Below, one piece after another: positions 2,758 through 46,794 of a stretch of DNA of 64,000 nucleotides. Both the position numbers and the translations under genes were made by a program. A model generated the notes under the pieces. The model was not told the origin of the DNA and did no database searches. It saw nothing but the letters and a program-made list of their open reading frames with translations. How positions within the stretch are numbered: the first letter of the stretch is position 1; the number at the start of each line of letters is the position of its first letter. The stretch is taken from NCBI RefSeq assembly GCF_054482525.1, contig NZ_CM137006.1, one strand, 5' to 3'.

Positions 2758-4005
2758 ATGGCCATTAAAAAACGCAGTGCAACCGTTGTGCCTGGCGCAT
2801 CCGGTGCGGCAGCGGCAGTTAAGAATCCGCAGGCCTCTAAAAGCAGCTTCTGGGGTGAACTCCCGCAGCATGTGATGTCAGGGATTTCACGCATGGTGCC
2901 GACCTTAATTATGGGCGGTGTGATCCTCGCTTTCAGCCAGCTGATTGCTTATAGCTGGCTTAAAATTCCTGCTGATATCGGCATCATGGATGCTCTTAAT
3001 AGCGGGAAATTCTCCGGTTTCGACCTCTCCTTACTGAAATTTGCCTGGCTGTCGCAATCCTTCGGCGGCGTGTTGTTTGGTTTCGCCATTCCGATGTTTG
3101 CTGCATTTGTGGCGAACTCTATCGGTGGCAAACTGGCGTTCCCGGCTGGTTTTATCGGCGGCTTGATGTCTACCCAGCCGACGCAACTGCTGAACTTCGA
3201 TTCCAGCACGATGCAATGGGCGACCTCTTCGCCGGTGCCGTCCACCTTCATTGGTGCGCTGATTATTTCTATCGTTGCCGGTTACCTTGTGAAGTGGATG
3301 AACCAGAAAATCCAGTTACCGGATTTCCTGTTAGCGTTCAAAACCACATTTTTGCTACCGATTCTTTCCGCCATATTTGTCATGCTGGCGATGTACTACG
3401 TCATCACCCCGTTTGGTGGCTGGATCAACGGCGGTATCCGTACCGTGCTGACTGCCGCAGGTGAGAAGGGCGCGCTGATGTACGCGATGGGGATCGCCGC
3501 GGCGACAGCAATCGACCTTGGTGGCCCAATCAACAAAGCAGCTGGTTTCGTTGCCTTCAGCTTTACCACGGACCACGTATTACCGGTCACCGCACGTTCC
3601 ATCGCTATTGTTATTCCGCCGATTGGTCTGGGTCTGGCGACCATTATTGACCGTCGTTTAACCGGCAAACGCCTGTTCAACGCTCAGCTTTATCCGCAGG
3701 GTAAAACCGCCATGTTCCTGGCCTTTATGGGGATCAGTGAAGGTGCGATTCCGTTTGCACTGGAAAGCCCCATCACCGCCATTCCGTCCTATATGGTCGG
3801 CGCGATTGTCGGCTCAACCGCTGCAGTCTGGCTGGGCGCAGTGCAATGGTTCCCGGAATCCGCTATCTGGGCATGGCCACTGGTCACTAACCTGGGCGTC
3901 TATATGGCGGGGATCGCGCTGGGAGCAGTCATTACTGCGCTGATGGTGGTGTTCCTGCGTCTGATGATGTTCCGCAAAGGCAAATTGTTAATCGATAGCC
4001 TGTAA
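2758..4005 (+). CDS. fryC: PTS fructose-like EIIC permease
   Basis: 415 aa polytopic membrane protein, IIC-like. Confidence 0.9.
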
Positions 4006-28473: not shown

Positions 28474-30011
28474 TGGCAATCACTAAATCAACTCCGGCAC
28501 CATTAACCGGTGGGACGTTATGGTGCGTTACTATTGCATTGTCATTAGCGACGTTTATGCAAATGTTGGATTCCACTATTTCTAACGTCGCAATACCGAC
28601 AATATCTGGCTTTCTGGGAGCATCAACAGACGAAGGCACCTGGGTTATCACCTCGTTTGGCGTAGCAAATGCCATTGCGATCCCTGTTACCGGCAGGCTG
28701 GCACAAAGAATAGGCGAATTAAGGTTATTTTTACTTTCAGTCACTTTTTTTTCGCTGTCTTCCTTAATGTGTAGTTTATCGACCAATCTTGATGTGCTGA
28801 TATTTTTTAGAGTCGTTCAGGGATTAATGGCGGGGCCGTTAATTCCACTGTCACAGAGTTTATTATTAAGGAATTATCCACCAGAAAAAAGAACATTTGC
28901 TCTGGCATTATGGTCAATGACCGTAATTATCGCTCCGATATGTGGGCCGATATTGGGTGGCTACATTTGCGATAACTTTAGCTGGGGTTGGATATTTTTA
29001 ATCAATGTCCCAATGGGGATTATCGTCCTGACATTATGCTTAACCTTACTTAAAGGAAGAGAAACTGAGACTTCACCGGTCAAAATGAATCTACCAGGAC
29101 TGACCCTGTTAGTGCTCGGTGTTGGTGGCTTGCAAATTATGCTTGATAAAGGGCGCGATCTGGATTGGTTCAACTCGAGTACAATAATAATATTAACAGT
29201 AGTATCAGTTATTTCTCTGATCTCTTTAGTCATTTGGGAGTCGACCTCAGAGAATCCGATTCTTGATCTCAGTTTGTTTAAGTCCCGTAACTTCACCATT
29301 GGTATTGTGAGTATCACATGCGCGTATTTATTTTACTCTGGAGCGATAGTCCTTATGCCGCAGTTACTCCAGGAAACAATGGGGTATAATGCGATTTGGG
29401 CCGGGCTTGCTTATGCGCCCATCGGCATCATGCCACTATTAATTTCACCTTTGATAGGACGTTATGGCAACAAAATAGATATGCGGTTGTTAGTGACATT
29501 TAGTTTTTTGATGTATGCGGTTTGCTATTACTGGCGTTCTGTGACATTTATGCCAACGATTGATTTTACAGGCATCATTTTGCCACAGTTTTTTCAGGGA
29601 TTCGCCGTCGCCTGTTTCTTTTTACCCTTAACAACGATTTCGTTTTCAGGTTTGCCAGATAATAAATTTGCCAATGCCTCGAGTATGAGTAATTTTTTTC
29701 GTACCTTGTCAGGATCAGTTGGTACGTCGTTGACAATGACGCTGTGGGGACGCCGAGAATCATTACACCATAGTCAGTTGACAGCAACAATCGATCAATT
29801 TAACCCCGTGTTTAATTCATCGTCACAAATTATGGATAAATATTATGGTTCGCTTTCAGGGGTTCTTAATGAAATTAATAATGAAATAACTCAGCAGTCA
29901 CTTTCAATTTCTGCAAATGAGATTTTCCGTATGGCGGCTATTGCTTTTATCTTACTTACGGTATTGGTTTGGTTTGCGAAACCGCCGTTTACAGCGAAAG
30001 GTGTTGGGTGA
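28473..30011 (+). CDS. emrY: MFS multidrug efflux pump (14 TM, EmrB-like)
   Basis: 512 aa; start overlaps emrK stop. Confidence 0.93.
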   Translation: MAITKSTPAPLTGGTLWCVTIALSLATFMQMLDSTISNVAIPTISGFLGASTDEGTWVITSFGVANAIAIPVTGRLAQRIGELRLFLLSVTFFSLSSLMCSLSTNLDVLIFFRVVQGLMAGPLIPLSQSLLLRNYPPEKRTFALALWSMTVIIAPICGPILGGYICDNFSWGWIFLINVPMGIIVLTLCLTLLKGRETETSPVKMNLPGLTLLVLGVGGLQIMLDKGRDLDWFNSSTIIILTVVSVISLISLVIWESTSENPILDLSLFKSRNFTIGIVSITCAYLFYSGAIVLMPQLLQETMGYNAIWAGLAYAPIGIMPLLISPLIGRYGNKIDMRLLVTFSFLMYAVCYYWRSVTFMPTIDFTGIILPQFFQGFAVACFFLPLTTISFSGLPDNKFANASSMSNFFRTLSGSVGTSLTMTLWGRRESLHHSQLTATIDQFNPVFNSSSQIMDKYYGSLSGVLNEINNEITQQSLSISANEIFRMAAIAFILLTVLVWFAKPPFTAKGVG

Positions 30012-30069
30012 TGGTAAAAAGAGAGAGCTATAGCAGGTAAGACGGTAGAATCTTAAGCCTGCGCCATCG

Positions 30070-30107
30070 GCAGCATCGCTCACCCAGGGAAAGGATGGCG
30101 ATGCTGC
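30070..30107. repeat. 10-bp perfect inverted repeat between convergent emrY and dsdA
   Basis: gcagcatcgc ... gcgatgctgc with an 18-nt loop; no clear U-tract. Confidence 0.35.
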
Positions 30108-30119
30108 ATTGAAAATTAA

Positions 30120-31448
30120 TTAGCGGCCTTTTGCCAGATATTGCTCCATCTCTTCTTCCGGCACCATTCCACCTCCCGTCGCCCACACCAGATGAGTGGC
30201 ATTACGCAGTTGTTCTGCGCTGAAACCGTGCATCTGTTGGTAACTTACTGATGCGCACACGCGCTGAGGCCCGGCCATACCCGCCAGTGCCGAAGGTTCA
30301 AGACGAATGCCTTCTTCCTGCGCCAGCCAGCCAAGCATGTCATACATGGTTTGATCGCTAAGGGTATAGAAGCCATCCAGCAGACGCTCCATTGCCCGCC
30401 CGACAAAGCCTGATGCGCGACCAACTGCAAGGCCATCCGCTGCGGTAAGGTTGTCGATACCAATATCCTGAACAGAAATCTGATCGTGTAATCCAGTATG
30501 GACGCCTAACAACATACAAGGGGAGTGCGTTGGTTCGGCAAAAAAGCAGTGAACATGATCGCCAAACGCCAGTTTAAGTCCGAATGCGACGCCACCAGGA
30601 CCACCGCCAACACCACACGGCAGATAGACAAACAGAGGGTTATCAGCATCGACGATACGACCTTGCTCGGCAAATTGCGCTTTAAGACGCTGGCCAGCGA
30701 CGGAATACCCAAGGAACAACGTGCGGGAATTCTCGTCATCAATAAAGAAACAGTTCGGGTCAGACTGCGCTGCTTTACGTCCTTCCTCGACGGCAACACC
30801 ATAATCTTGCTCATATTCCACGACCGTAACGCCATGGCTGCGCAGTTTCGCTTTTTTCCATGCCCGGGCATCAGCAGACATATGCACTGTCACCTTAAAG
30901 CCAATGCGGGCGCTCATTATGCCGATTGATAACCCCAGATTTCCGGTTGAGCCCACAGCAATGCTGTATTGACTAAAGAACTGTTTAAACTCCGGAGACA
31001 GCAGTTTGCTGTAGTCATCTTCAGGCGTCAGCAACCCCGCTTCCAGAGCCAGTTTTTCTGCGTGTGCCAGGACTTCATAAATCCCGCCGCGTGCTTTTAT
31101 GGAGCCGGAAATGGGCAAATGGCTATCTTTTTTCAGTAACAGTTGCCCGCTGATCGGTTGTTGATATTCCTTTTCCAGCCGTTTTTGCATAGCTGGAATG
31201 GCAACCAGTTCTGATTCAATAATCCCCCCAGTAGCAGCAGTTTCAGGAAATGCTTTTGCCAGATAGGGTGCAAAACGGGATAAGCGCGCATGGGCGTCCT
31301 GAACATCCTGTTCGGTCAGGCCAACATAAGGTAAACCTTCAGCCAATGAGGTCGTGCCAGGATTAAACCAGGTGGTTTCTTTAAGAGCAACCAGATCCTT
31401 TACCAACGGATACTGGGCGATGAGCGAGTTCATTTTAGCGTTTTCCAT
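30120..31448 (-). CDS. dsdA: D-serine dehydratase (PLP-dependent)
   Basis: 442 aa, full length. Confidence 0.95.
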
Positions 31449-31465
31449 AGTACGTCTCTTTGCGC

Positions 31466-31696
31466 TTAGATGATAAATGACAGCAGGAATGTGCCCGCCA
31501 GAGCGACGACTGAAGCGATAAATGTCGCTGTCGTATAGTATTTAAATGTTTCATTGAGCGTAGCGCCGCAATATTGCTTCGCCAGCCAGAAAAGCGAGTC
31601 CGTAACGATCGTGCAGCCAATTGCACCTGAACCGATAGCAATCGTAAAAATTTCCGGGCTGATGTCGGGATACAGCGCCAGCACAATGATCCATAT
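31466..31696 (-). pseudogene. dsdX: 3' remnant of dsdX (GntP-family D-serine permease), truncated at the csc island junction
   Basis: Only about 75 C-terminal codons of a permease-like frame remain, ending 18 bp before dsdA; the frame hits a stop upstream at about 31697, and no dsdC follows. Confidence 0.7.
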
Positions 31697-31926
31697 TTAT
31701 ATTTTCTTCTCCAGATTGGCGATGCCAGTTGGCATGTTTTACCTACTTGCCTACATGGTTACTCGTTGGCGAGAACAGAGGCGGAATTGGGTACAATTGT
31801 CCGGGAATTATTGTTATTTTTTATTGTATTGCCGTGTCGGGTTATAGGGCGTTGAGAATATCGTTGGATCTCGCCAGTGACGTCTGTTTCTGCTACAGTG
31901 CCCGTTTTACGGCAAACGGCTTGGGT

Positions 31927-32922
31927 ATGGCTTCATTAAAGGATGTCGCACGCCTGGCGGGAGTGTCGATGATGACAGTCTCCCGGGTGATGCATAATGC
32001 AGAATCTGTGCGTCCTGCAACGCGTGACCGCGTATTGCAGGCAATCCAGACCCTGAATTATGTTCCTGATCTTTCCGCCCGTAAGATGCGCGCTCAAGGA
32101 CGTAAGCCGTCGACTCTCGCCGTGCTGGCGCAGGACACTGCTACCACTCCTTTCTCTGTTGATATTCTGCTTGCCATTGAGCAAACCGCCAGCGAGTTCG
32201 GCTGGAATAGTTTTTTAATCAATATTTTTTCTGAAGATGACGCTGTCCGCGCGGCACGTCAGCTGCTTGCCCACCGTCCGGATGGCATTATCTATACTAC
32301 AATGGGGCTGCGACATATCACGCTGCCTGAGTCTCTGTATGGTGAAAATATTGTATTGGCGAACTGTGTGGCGGATGACCCAGCGTTACCCAGTTATATC
32401 CCTGATGATTACACTGCACAATATGAATCAACACAGCATTTGCTCGCGGCGGGCTATCGTCAACCGTTATGCTTCTGGCTACCGGAAAGTGCGTTGGCAA
32501 CAGGGTATCGTCGGCAGGGATTTGAGCAGGCCTGGCGTGATGCTGGACGAGATCTGGCTGAGGTGAAACAATTTCACATGGCAACAGGTGATGATCACTA
32601 CACCGATCTCGCAAGTTTACTCAATGACCACTTCAAATCTGGCAAACCAGATTTTGATGTTCTGATATGTGGTAACGATCGCGCAGCCTTTGTCGCTTAT
32701 CAGGTTCTCCTGGCGAAGGGGGTACGTATCCCGCAGGATGTCGCCGTAATGGGCTTTGATAATCTGGTTGGCGTCGGGCATCTGTTTTTACCGCCGCTGA
32801 CCACAATTCAGCTTCCACATGACATTATCGGGCGGGAAGCTGCATTGCATATTATTGAAGGTCGTGAAGGGGGAAGAGTGACGCGGATCCCTTGCCCGCT
32901 GTTGATCCGTTGTTCCACCTGA
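31927..32922 (+). CDS. cscR: LacI-family sucrose repressor
   Basis: 331 aa from MASLKDVARLAGVSMMTVSRV (HTH); track ORF extends 66 codons upstream. Confidence 0.9.
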   Translation: MASLKDVARLAGVSMMTVSRVMHNAESVRPATRDRVLQAIQTLNYVPDLSARKMRAQGRKPSTLAVLAQDTATTPFSVDILLAIEQTASEFGWNSFLINIFSEDDAVRAARQLLAHRPDGIIYTTMGLRHITLPESLYGENIVLANCVADDPALPSYIPDDYTAQYESTQHLLAAGYRQPLCFWLPESALATGYRRQGFEQAWRDAGRDLAEVKQFHMATGDDHYTDLASLLNDHFKSGKPDFDVLICGNDRAAFVAYQVLLAKGVRIPQDVAVMGFDNLVGVGHLFLPPLTTIQLPHDIIGREAALHIIEGREGGRVTRIPCPLLIRCST

Positions 32923-32929
32923 TATTATG

Positions 32930-43339: not shown

Positions 43340-44650
43340 ATGGGTCAGGTTTTACCGCTGGTTACCCGCCAGGGCGATCGTATCGCCATTGTTAGCGGTT
43401 TACGTACGCCTTTTGCCCGCCAGGCGACGGCTTTTCATGGCATTCCCGCGGTTGATTTAGGGAAGATGGTGGTAGGCGAACTGCTGGCACGCAGCGAAAT
43501 TCCCGCCGAAGTGATTGAACAACTGGTTTTTGGTCAGGTCGTACAAATGCCGGAAGCCCCCAACATTGCGCGTGAAATTGTTCTCGGTACTGGAATGAAT
43601 GTGCATACCGATGCTTACAGCGTCAGCCGCGCTTGCGCTACCAGTTTCCAGGCGGTTGCAAACGTCGCAGAAAGCCTGATGGCGGGAACTATTCGCGCGG
43701 GGATTGCCGGTGGGGCAGATTCCTCTTCCGTATTGCCAATTGGCGTCAGTAAAAAACTGGCGCGCGTGCTGGTTGATGTCAACAAAGCCCGCACAATGAG
43801 CCAGCGCCTGAAACTCTTCTCTCGCCTGCGTTTGCGCGACTTAATGCCCGTACCACCTGCGGTAGCAGAATATTCTACCGGCTTGCGGATGGGCGACACC
43901 GCAGAGCAAATGGCGAAAACCTACGGCATCACCCGAGAACAGCAAGATGCATTAGCGCACCGTTCGCATCAGCGAGCCGCTCAGGCGTGGTCAGACGGTA
44001 AACTCAAAGAAGAGGTGATGACTGCCTTTATCCCTCCTTATAAACAACCGCTTGTCGAAGACAACAATATTCGCGGTAATTCCTCGCTTGCCGATTACGC
44101 AAAGCTGCGCCCGGCGTTTGATCGCAAACACGGAACGGTAACGGCGGCAAACAGTACGCCGCTGACCGATGGCGCGGCAGCGGTGATCCTGATGACTGAA
44201 TCCCGGGCGAAAGAATTAGGGCTGGTGCCGCTGGGGTATCTGCGCAGCTACGCATTTACTGCGATTGATGTCTGGCAGGACATGTTGCTCGGTCCAGCCT
44301 GGTCAACACCGCTGGCGCTGGAGCGTGCCGGTTTGACGATGAGCGATCTGACATTGATCGATATGCACGAAGCCTTTGCAGCTCAGACGCTGGCGAATAT
44401 TCAGTTGCTGGGTAGTGAACGTTTTGCTCGTGATGTACTGGGGCGTGCACATGCCACTGGCGAAGTGGACGATAGCAAATTTAACGTGCTTGGCGGTTCG
44501 ATTGCTTACGGGCATCCCTTCGCGGCGACCGGCGCACGGATGATTACCCAGACATTGCATGAACTTCGCCGTCGCGGCGGTGGATTTGGTTTAGTGACCG
44601 CCTGTGCTGCCGGTGGGCTTGGCGCGGCAATGGTTGTGGAGGCGGAATAA
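43340..44650 (+). CDS. fadI: 3-ketoacyl-CoA thiolase (anaerobic beta-oxidation)
   Basis: 436 aa thiolase. Confidence 0.95.
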
Positions 44651-46794
44651 TGGAAATGGCATCAGCGTTTACCCTTAATGTCCGTCTGGACAACATTGCT
44701 GTTATCACCATCGACGTACCGGGTGAGAAAATGAATACCCTGAAGGCGGAGTTTGCCTCGCAGGTGCGCGCCATTATTAAGCAACTCCGTGAAAACAAAG
44801 AGTTGCGCGGCGTGGTGTTTATCTCCGCGAAACCAGACAACTTCATTGCTGGCGCAGACATCAACATGATCGCCAACTGCAAAACGGCACAAGAAGCGGA
44901 AGCACTGGCGCGGCAGGGTCAACAGTTAATGGCGGAGATTCATGCTTTGCCCGTTCCGGTTATCGCGGCTATTCATGGCGCTTGCCTGGGCGGTGGGCTG
45001 GAGTTGGCGCTGGCGTGCCACGGTCGCATGTGTACTGACGATCCTAAAACGGTGCTCGGTTTGCCTGAAGTACAACTTGGATTATTACCCGGTTCAGGCG
45101 GCACCCAGCGTTTACCGCGCCTGATAGGTGTCAGCACAGCATTAGAGATGATCCTCACCGGAAAACAACTTCGGGCGAAACAGGCATTAAAGCTGGGGCT
45201 GGTGGATGACGTTGTTCCGCAATCCATTTTACTGGAAGCCGCTGTTGAGCTGGCAAAGCAGGATCGTCCATCTTCACGCCCTCTACCTGTACGCGAGCGT
45301 ATTCTGGCGGGGCCGTTAGGTCGTGCGCTGCTGTTCAAAATGGTCGGCAAGAAAACAGAACACAAAACTCAGGGTAACTATCCGGCGACAGAACGCATCC
45401 TGGAGGTTGTCGAAACGGGATTAGCGCAGGGCACCAGTAGCGGCTATGACGCTGAAGCCCGTGCTTTTGGCGAACTGGCGATGACGCCGCAATCGCAGGC
45501 TTTGCGTAGTATCTTTTTTGCCAGTACGGAAGTGAAGAAAGATCCTGGCAGTGACGCGCCGCCTGCGCCATTAAACAGCGTGGGAATTTTAGGTGGTGGC
45601 TTGATGGGCGGCGGTATTGCTTACGTCACTGCTTGTAAAGCGGGGCTTCCGGTCAGAATTAAAGATATCAACCCGCAGGGCATAAATCATGCGCTGAAGT
45701 ACAGTTGGGATCAGCTGGAGGGCAAAGTTCGCCGTCGTCATCTCAAAGCCAGCGAACGTGACAGACAGCTGGCATTAATCTCCGGAACGACGGACTATCG
45801 CGGCTTTGCCCATCGCGATCTGATTATTGAAGCGGTGTTTGAAAATCTCGAATTAAAACAACAAATGGTAGCGGAAGTTGAGCAAAATTGCGCCGCTCAT
45901 ACCATCTTTGCTTCGAATACGTCATCTTTACCGATTGGTGATATCGCCGCTCACGCTACGCGACCTGAGCAAGTTATTGGCCTGCATTTCTTCAGTCCGG
46001 TGGAAAAAATGCCGCTGGTGGAGATTATTCCTCATGCGGGGACATCGGCGCAAACCATCGCTACCACAGTAAAACTGGCGAAGAAACAGGGTAAAACGCC
46101 AATTGTCGTGCGTGACAAAGCCGGGTTTTACGTCAATCGCATTTTAGCGCCTTACATTAATGAAGCTATCCGCATGTTGACCGAAGGTGAACGGGTAGAG
46201 CACATTGATGCCGCGCTGGTGAAATTTGGTTTTCCGGTAGGCCCAATCCAACTTTTGGATGAGGTAGGAATCGACACCGGGACTAAAATTATTCCTGTAC
46301 TGGAAGCCGCTTATGGAGAACGTTTTAGCGCGCCTGCAAATGTTGTTTCTTCAATTTTGAACGACGATCGCAAAGGCAGAAAAAATGGCCGGGGTTTCTA
46401 TCTTTATGGTCAGAAAGGGCGTAAAAGCAAAAAACAGGTCGATCCCGCCATTTACCCGCTCATTGGCGCACAAGGGCAGGGGCGACTCTCCGCACCGCAG
46501 GTAGCTGAACGGTGTGTGATGTTGATGCTGAATGAAGCAGTACGTTGTCTGGACGAGCAGGTTATCCGTAGCGTGCGTGACGGAGATATTGGCGCGGTAT
46601 TTGGCATTGGTTTTCCGCCATTTCTCGGTGGTCCGTTCCGCTACATCGATTCTCTCGGTGCGGGTGAAGTGGTTGCAATAATGCAACGACTGGCCACGCA
46701 GTATGGTTCCCGTTTTACCCCTTGCGAGCGTTTAGTCGAGATGAGCAAGCGTGGGGAAAGTTTTTGGAAAACAACTGCAACTGACCTGCAATAA
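44650..46794 (+). CDS. fadJ: Fatty-acid oxidation complex alpha subunit (enoyl-CoA hydratase / 3-hydroxyacyl-CoA dehydrogenase)
   Basis: 714 aa; crotonase fold then NAD-binding dehydrogenase domain; start overlaps fadI stop. Confidence 0.95.

Follow-up and report, generated by a model that had tools for sequence, protein, structure and literature searches.

An intact dsdA gene without its activator or permease in a csc-type allele of the Escherichia coli argW island

Overview of the locus

The dsdA gene in a 64-kb window (the whole stretch of DNA analysed here, 64,000 nucleotides of contig NZ_CM137006.1) is intact and stands without its usual upstream partners. The locus is a csc-type allele of the variable argW-dsdCXA island of Escherichia coli. 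It very probably arose by an ancestral replacement that left dsdA essentially silent, such that the strain would use sucrose and would not detoxify D-serine. The arrangement has long been known, is very common and has had its consequences worked out experimentally, and there is nothing new in this picture.

At the native locus, dsdX and dsdA share a transcript whose promoter depends on both the LysR activator DsdC and D-serine. In the proposed explanation, a single ancestral event would have put the sucrose regulon cscRAKB in place of dsdC, the control region between dsdC and dsdX, and dsdX codons 1-373, with the final 72 dsdX codons and a complete dsdA staying behind. This allele would then have spread between lineages via homologous recombination in its flanks. 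Activator and promoter would both have been lost to dsdA, with at most a weak internal promoter left in the 3' end of dsdX. Entry of D-serine would continue via other transporters, for example CycA. By analogy with other strains of this type, a cell of the window lineage is expected to use sucrose, and neither to detoxify D-serine nor to grow on it.

The finding that cscRAKB took the place of dsdC and part of dsdX, at the argW recombination hotspot, is credited by later reports to Jahreis 2002 and to Moritz & Welch 2006 (PMC4366372, PMC7486766, PMC11251922, PMC13054288). Whether a strain carries the csc or the dsdCXA allele decides its use of sucrose or of D-serine, and this serves strain typing; the two alleles can be typed by a triplex PCR for dsdX, dsdA and cscR (PMC13054288). 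With the csc-type allele, D-serine also becomes toxic to many intestinal E. coli and acts on them as a signal that represses virulence. Given that the window lineage belongs to phylogroup D and is a relative of the PCN033-like extraintestinal pathogenic E. coli (ExPEC), it would represent an extraintestinal pathogen that cannot induce D-serine catabolism.

The dsdA gene

30120-31448, minus strand: dsdA, D-serine ammonia-lyase, 442 codons and stop (open reading frame; TIGR02035, NF002823, K-12 alignment, PDB 3SS7)

The initial annotation had described dsdA as a full 442-codon frame, which is confirmed by the open reading frame, by an end-to-end match to TIGR02035 and by gapless alignment with K-12. 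The product scores 810.7 bits against the NCBIfam equivalog TIGR02035 (curated cut-off 368.25 bits), with residues 9-438 on profile positions 1-431 of 431, and 778 bits against NF002823 (cut-off 246 bits). It is identical to K-12 DsdA at 437 of 442 residues (99%) with zero gaps, and residues 1-442 align with PDB 3SS7, the solved structure of E. coli DsdA. There is no frameshift or stop, and the segment SGSIKARGG (with K118) and the glycine-rich loop CGVGGGPGG are the same as in K-12; we take K118 to be the PLP-binding, catalytic lysine of E. coli DsdA, and the glycine-rich stretch to be the phosphate loop. Among the csc-type and dsdCXA-type genomes compared, none of the substitutions is private to the window, and all five differences from K-12 recur in dsdCXA-type genomes. 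By these comparisons, the window dsdA is an intact D-serine ammonia-lyase gene with a predicted enzyme function. The gene was found in 5395 of 5426 complete E. coli genomes, and has been reported to be carried by more than 98% of strains (Connolly et al., PMC4366372).

The replacement junction and the lost partners

31449-31465, minus strand: native dsdX-dsdA intergenic segment, 17 bp, same as in K-12 and including the dsdA ribosome-binding region AAAGAGA
31466-31684, minus strand: dsdX remnant, last 72 codons and stop, 219 bp (NF007395 DsdX profile, tblastn)
31683-31684, no strand: replacement junction between native dsdX DNA and csc-side DNA (alignment with K-12)
31684-31926, no strand: csc-side spacer, non-K-12 DNA, 243 bp to the cscR ATG at 31927 (no K-12 homology)

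The dsdX remnant corresponds to positions 374-445 of the 445 in the NF007395 profile, and tblastn with K-12 DsdX recovered residues 374-445 only. A GTG at 31684-31682 of the remnant straddles the replacement junction. Eleven csc-type genomes were sampled across the identity range and, with the window, make a set of 12; one of them is O157:H7 (F3113, L005). The 219-bp remnant is present as an annotated pseudogene in all 11 sampled genomes, and for PCN033, whose genome is near-identical to the window, RefSeq lists dsdX as a pseudogene with the remark "missing N-terminus". Across all 12, the 17-bp intergenic segment is invariant and dsdA is an intact 442-codon gene.

Homology with K-12 stops at 31683/31684, as judged by alignment and by a megablast match to 1-1784 of a junction-spanning 3.2-kb query (emrY, dsdA, dsdX', cscR and cscA). 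The junction sequence, GGATCATTG/TGCTG, is base-identical in 12 of 12 csc-type genomes, O157:H7 F3113 included. The edge of the remnant had initially been placed at 31697, with a spacer of approximately 230 bp; the actual break is about 13 bp nearer dsdA, and the spacer is 243 bp. This csc-side spacer presumably holds the cscR promoter on the plus strand. It also carries a 12-bp indel polymorphism upstream of cscR: the 12 bp at 31853-31864 are missing in four of the 11 other csc-type genomes (L010-L013), resulting in a spacer of 231 bp rather than 243 bp.

No dsdC was found in the 64-kb window by tblastn with K-12 DsdC or by blastn with K-12 dsdC, and the K-12 dsdX 5' part and dsdC-dsdX intergenic region gave zero blastn matches in the same 64 kb. 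The statement that the upstream partners of dsdA are gone thus stands for dsdC, for the 5' part of dsdX and for the control region. Of the marks of a canonical dsdCXA operon, the locus has neither the divergent LysR gene dsdC nor a 445-codon dsdX with a DsdC-dependent promoter. In comparison to the canonical dsdCXA loci of K-12 and uropathogenic E. coli (UPEC) CFT073, the segment comprising dsdA, its ribosome-binding region, the last 72 dsdX codons and the downstream emrY is collinear with the window and approximately 97-98% identical, whereas three parts of the canonical loci are not found in the window, namely the dsdC gene, the dsdX promoter that depends on DsdC, and codons 1-373 of dsdX. 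Because all three are absent, the inducible operon does not exist in the window.

The csc cluster

31927-32922, plus strand: cscR, LacI-family sucrose repressor, 331 aa (LacI-family profile matches, RefSeq; gene name cscR given in L010)
32930-34363, minus strand: cscA, sucrose hydrolase (invertase) (TIGR01322, 479.8 bits; RefSeq)
34579-35493, plus strand: cscK, fructokinase (NF006957, 507.7 bits; cut-off 450)
35565-36812, plus strand: cscB, sucrose:H+ symporter of the oligosaccharide MFS type (TIGR00882, 594.5 bits)
36892-37074, minus strand: DUF4942-domain open reading frame, short gene fragment, 60 codons (PCN033 RefSeq annotation, translation)
37254-37328, minus strand: argW, tRNA-Arg(CCT), far boundary of the variable island (ARAGORN; Rfam RF00005, 63.4 bits)

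All four csc genes are full length and sited between the dsdX remnant and argW, and the gene order is emrY / dsdA / dsdX' / cscR / cscA / cscK / cscB / argW. The window shares this order, and the intact dsdA, with the csc-type argW islands of O157:H7 EDL933/TUV93-0, EC3132 and E. coli W. The cscR gene points away from dsdA and towards cscA, and cscA shares the dsdA strand, 1481 bp upstream of the dsdA ATG. CscB of PCN033 has been identified as such, and that strain, which has the csc regulon, scored positive for sucrose in the API 20E test (PMC4578781). The DUF4942 open reading frame between cscB and argW is probably what remains of a larger gene on an element integrated at the tRNA hotspot. 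Rfam and tRNA scans of the whole 64-kb window found no RNA element beyond argW.

Distribution among E. coli genomes

The 3.2-kb junction-spanning query was used to count csc-type genomes, with a threshold of at least 80% coverage. Coverage at that level in one aligned piece was found in 2660 of 5426 complete E. coli genomes, and the remaining genomes match the query only as far as the breakpoint and then continue into a full dsdX. The arrangement is therefore ordinary, being shared by about half of the complete E. coli genomes.

One genome (L015, NZ_CP145679.1, strain S1-NGR-02-A) lacks the csc junction and has dsdX as a 297-bp pseudogene "missing N-terminus", a longer remnant (1566-1783 and beyond), next to a dsdA that is nucleotide-identical to K-12. 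The different remnant and the absence of the csc junction point to a second, independent way of orphaning dsdA. In another genome, of the csc type (L009, NZ_AP024561.1, strain NIPH17_0036), cscA is a pseudogene (3030-3200; frameshifted, with an internal stop, and truncated); judging from its sequence, this strain probably uses neither sucrose via Csc nor D-serine.

Possible transcription of dsdA

Promoters and terminators were sought over 29900-34700, with a strict threshold for the sigma-70 consensus. No sigma-70 consensus site was found at this threshold on either strand of that interval, and a relaxed scan of the dsdA strand over the cscA-dsdA stretch gave best matches of at most 8 of 12. 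A new promoter in the csc-side spacer was rejected as a candidate, given that the strict scan was empty and that such relaxed matches are no evidence of a promoter. From cscA to the dsdX remnant, the minus strand has no predicted intrinsic terminator. A terminator that insulates dsdA from cscA was also rejected, since the single terminator-like element predicted on the minus strand, at 31500-31481, lies inside native dsdX DNA. Transcription of the dsdXA operon passes through that element.

Native DNA is kept for 236 bp upstream of dsdA, and a weak dsdA promoter element has been reported 115 bp upstream of the ATG (PMC7486766). In the window it would fall as follows:

31555-31600, minus strand, element at about 31563: weak internal dsdA promoter, approximate site in the retained dsdX 3' end (position from PMC7486766)

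A -10-like hexamer, CAATAT, can be read by eye at 31576-31571, without a good -35; neither the strict nor the relaxed scan picked it up, and the combination of CAATAT with a poor -35 fits a weak promoter. The initial annotation had held that any dsdA transcription must start in the foreign spacer, which is too narrow a view, given that two further sources lie upstream: the retained native 236 bp, where a weak promoter has been reported, and cscA on the same strand.

The consequences of this arrangement have been studied in enterohemorrhagic E. coli (EHEC) O157:H7. The sampled O157:H7 genome has the same junction sequence, 72-codon dsdX remnant and RefSeq annotation as the window, and F3113 and the window differ by approximately 15 SNPs in the 481 bp upstream of dsdA, point differences only. 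The hosts differ as well: that of the window is a phylogroup D lineage near porcine ExPEC PCN033, whereas O157:H7 is a LEE-positive intestinal pathogen. With some 15 positions in the 481 bp setting it apart from O157:H7, the window may have a lineage-specific dsdA promoter that consensus scans would miss.

In EHEC O157:H7, which lacks DsdC, dsdA is not expressed and the system is non-functional (O'Boyle et al. 2020, PMC7486766). Addition of D-serine slows the growth of EHEC in M9-glucose (0.63 per hour without it, 0.19 per hour with it), D-serine as carbon source gives no growth, and a reporter with the wild-type dsdA upstream region shows low fluorescence (PMC7486766). Intracellular D-serine accumulates in EHEC, and cells are rescued by plasmid-borne dsdA, which lowers its level more than 7-fold (Connolly et al., PMC4366372). 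Spontaneous deletions spanning cscR raise dsdA mRNA 33-fold and restore D-serine catabolism, and these reactivating deletions put dsdA under the control of cscAp or z3622p (PMC7486766). The dsdA of the window could likewise be re-activated by deletions that bring cscAp or another promoter near, although the 8-bp CCGGATAA repeat behind one of the EHEC deletions is absent from 31400-37400 of the window. The prediction that dsdA is silent and D-serine toxic despite an intact gene matches the published O157:H7 results, obtained with the same junction, and by analogy would extend to the window. The expression and growth experiments that had been proposed along with it have essentially been done already in strains with the same junction, and gave the predicted result.

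Constraint on the orphaned gene

The dsdA alleles of csc-type and dsdCXA-type genomes interleave, and two csc-type genomes (L007 and L009) have a dsdA that is nucleotide-identical to K-12. Interleaved alleles fit a single ancestral replacement moved between lineages by recombination in the flanks. Constraint was compared between 12 csc-type and 9-10 dsdCXA-type genomes, a small and phylogenetically non-independent sample. Pairwise dN/dS of dsdA is 0.115 in the csc type (pN/pS approximately 0.12) and 0.038 in the dsdCXA type in this small, non-independent sample. Segregating nonsynonymous and synonymous sites number 13:33 and 11:78, respectively (Fisher p = 0.03, for sequences that are not independent and share alleles). 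Purifying selection predominates on dsdA in both groups, and the difference between them hints at relaxed constraint on the orphaned gene, within a small sample with shared alleles. Because alleles are common to both types, the low csc-type pN/pS is mostly polymorphism inherited from dsdCXA-type ancestors. It is nonetheless lower than expected for a wholly functionless gene, though most of the polymorphism predates the replacement.

Singleton changes in the 12 csc-type dsdA genes comprise seven synonymous and eight nonsynonymous. Two genomes (L008 and L013) have private changes at codons 285 and 286 (G285S, G286D), adjoining GVGGGPGG, and another (L004) has three private nonsynonymous changes, at codons 23, 61 and 263. 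It is possible that such private changes represent early loss of function.

Alternative explanations

Expression of dsdA could instead be conditional, such that sucrose relieves repression by CscR and a transcript from cscAp reads past cscA, antisense to cscR and through the dsdX remnant, into dsdA. The layout allows for this, with cscA and dsdA on one strand, 1481 bp apart, and with no terminator-like element on that strand ahead of the dsdX remnant; furthermore, cscAp of EHEC does drive dsdA after deletion of cscR, and repression returns when CscR is provided in trans (PMC7486766). Read-through that starts from cscA faces approximately 1.5 kb, of which 1 kb is antisense to cscR, and experiments in EHEC demonstrate that it normally fails to reach dsdA (PMC7486766). 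GFP output remained low from wild-type DNA reaching from cscAp to codon 6 of dsdA, in a construct that carried cscR and for which sucrose was not reported (PMC7486766). The failure would be explained by Rho-dependent termination in the untranslated stretch, or by collision with convergent cscR transcription, and some 1.5 kb of untranslated RNA that faces such transcription is a likely barrier of either kind. Surveys also find use of D-serine and use of sucrose to be mutually exclusive (PMC11251922, PMC13054288). Sucrose-dependent read-through is therefore quite improbable. The stronger proposal that the orphaned dsdA has been rewired, with D-serine detoxification coupled to sucrose availability through cscAp read-through, is very improbable; if true, it would explain why the gene has stayed intact in about half of E. 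coli.

Two further readings concern a gene that is weakly expressed or has no function. A low, constitutive dsdA expression, driven by the promoter within the dsdX 3' end, might be kept by selection for a residual function, either partial detoxification of CycA-imported D-serine or that of a standby gene. The reported promoter element 115 bp upstream of the ATG is in the retained DNA (PMC7486766), and the native ribosome-binding region is intact. As for dsdA itself, all 12 csc-type genomes have it intact, 5395 of 5426 genomes carry it, and its pN/pS in the csc type is 0.12. Sensitivity to D-serine also depends on the medium, in that EHEC tolerates 1 mM D-serine in MEM-HEPES with no growth defect and a UPEC dsdA mutant does not (PMC4699771). 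However, EHEC accumulates intracellular D-serine and does not grow on it (PMC4366372), the more than 7-fold reduction brought about by plasmid-borne dsdA suggests that the chromosomal EHEC gene contributes little, and the low pN/pS mostly reflects inherited polymorphism, given the alleles shared between the types. Maintenance for a residual function is thus considered unlikely. Alternatively, dsdA may be a functionless relic in early neutral decay, which is still intact because the replacement, or its arrival in each lineage, was recent. The excess of nonsynonymous sites in the csc type (13:33 against 11:78, Fisher p = 0.03) is as expected of decay, as are the singletons (7 synonymous to 8 nonsynonymous), which include G285S, G286D and the three in L004. 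The arrangement is the same in E. coli W, whose dsdX and dsdA are called pseudogenes by the authors and whose dsdA was lost in a laboratory deletion without comment (PMC6599523). Nevertheless, a frameshift or stop is found in none of the 12 csc-type dsdA genes, and no substitution is private to the window DsdA. The genomes sampled are also few and phylogenetically non-independent, and recent singletons are always enriched in nonsynonymous changes. Early decay is accordingly a tentative reading and somewhat unlikely. An essentially silent dsdA, in an allele that arose by ancestral replacement, is the preferred explanation.

The window lineage and its relatives

In the 3.2 kb round the junction, the window matches E. 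coli PCN033 at 100% identity; this strain is a porcine ExPEC of serogroup O11 and phylogroup D (PMC4578781). Over the 64 kb the two differ by 40 substitutions and one indel, and strains SCU-102 and 19KM1776 are as close to the window as PCN033 is, or slightly closer. The window lineage is a member of a PCN033-like clone, a close relative of PCN033 and distinct from it. Among the papers searched, none mentions PCN033 together with D-serine.

A second dsdCXA copy elsewhere in the genome had been named as a finding that would overturn the prediction of a silent dsdA. Each of the three closest complete genomes (PCN033, SCU-102 and 19KM1776) has exactly one dsdA, and none was found on any plasmid in the genome collection searched. 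With one dsdA in each of these three genomes, no second dsdCXA copy is expected in the window lineage.

The comparison with PCN033 also brought out differences away from the island. In fadJ (44650-46794, plus strand), the window has a G at 45195 that is missing from the PCN033 RefSeq record, such that the window fadJ is an intact 714-codon open reading frame and that of PCN033 is annotated as frameshifted; the frameshift in PCN033 could be either a mutation particular to that strain or a fault in its assembly. Between mlaA and fadL, at 39563-40795 on the minus strand, the window has a 410-codon open reading frame that is listed in PCN033 as "hypothetical protein" WP_000937803.1. Of the 40 substitutions that separate the window from PCN033, 31 cluster in fabB, within approximately 620 bp (62460-63078), and are mostly spaced in multiples of three. 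The pattern resembles a short recombined tract in a clone that is otherwise nearly identical.
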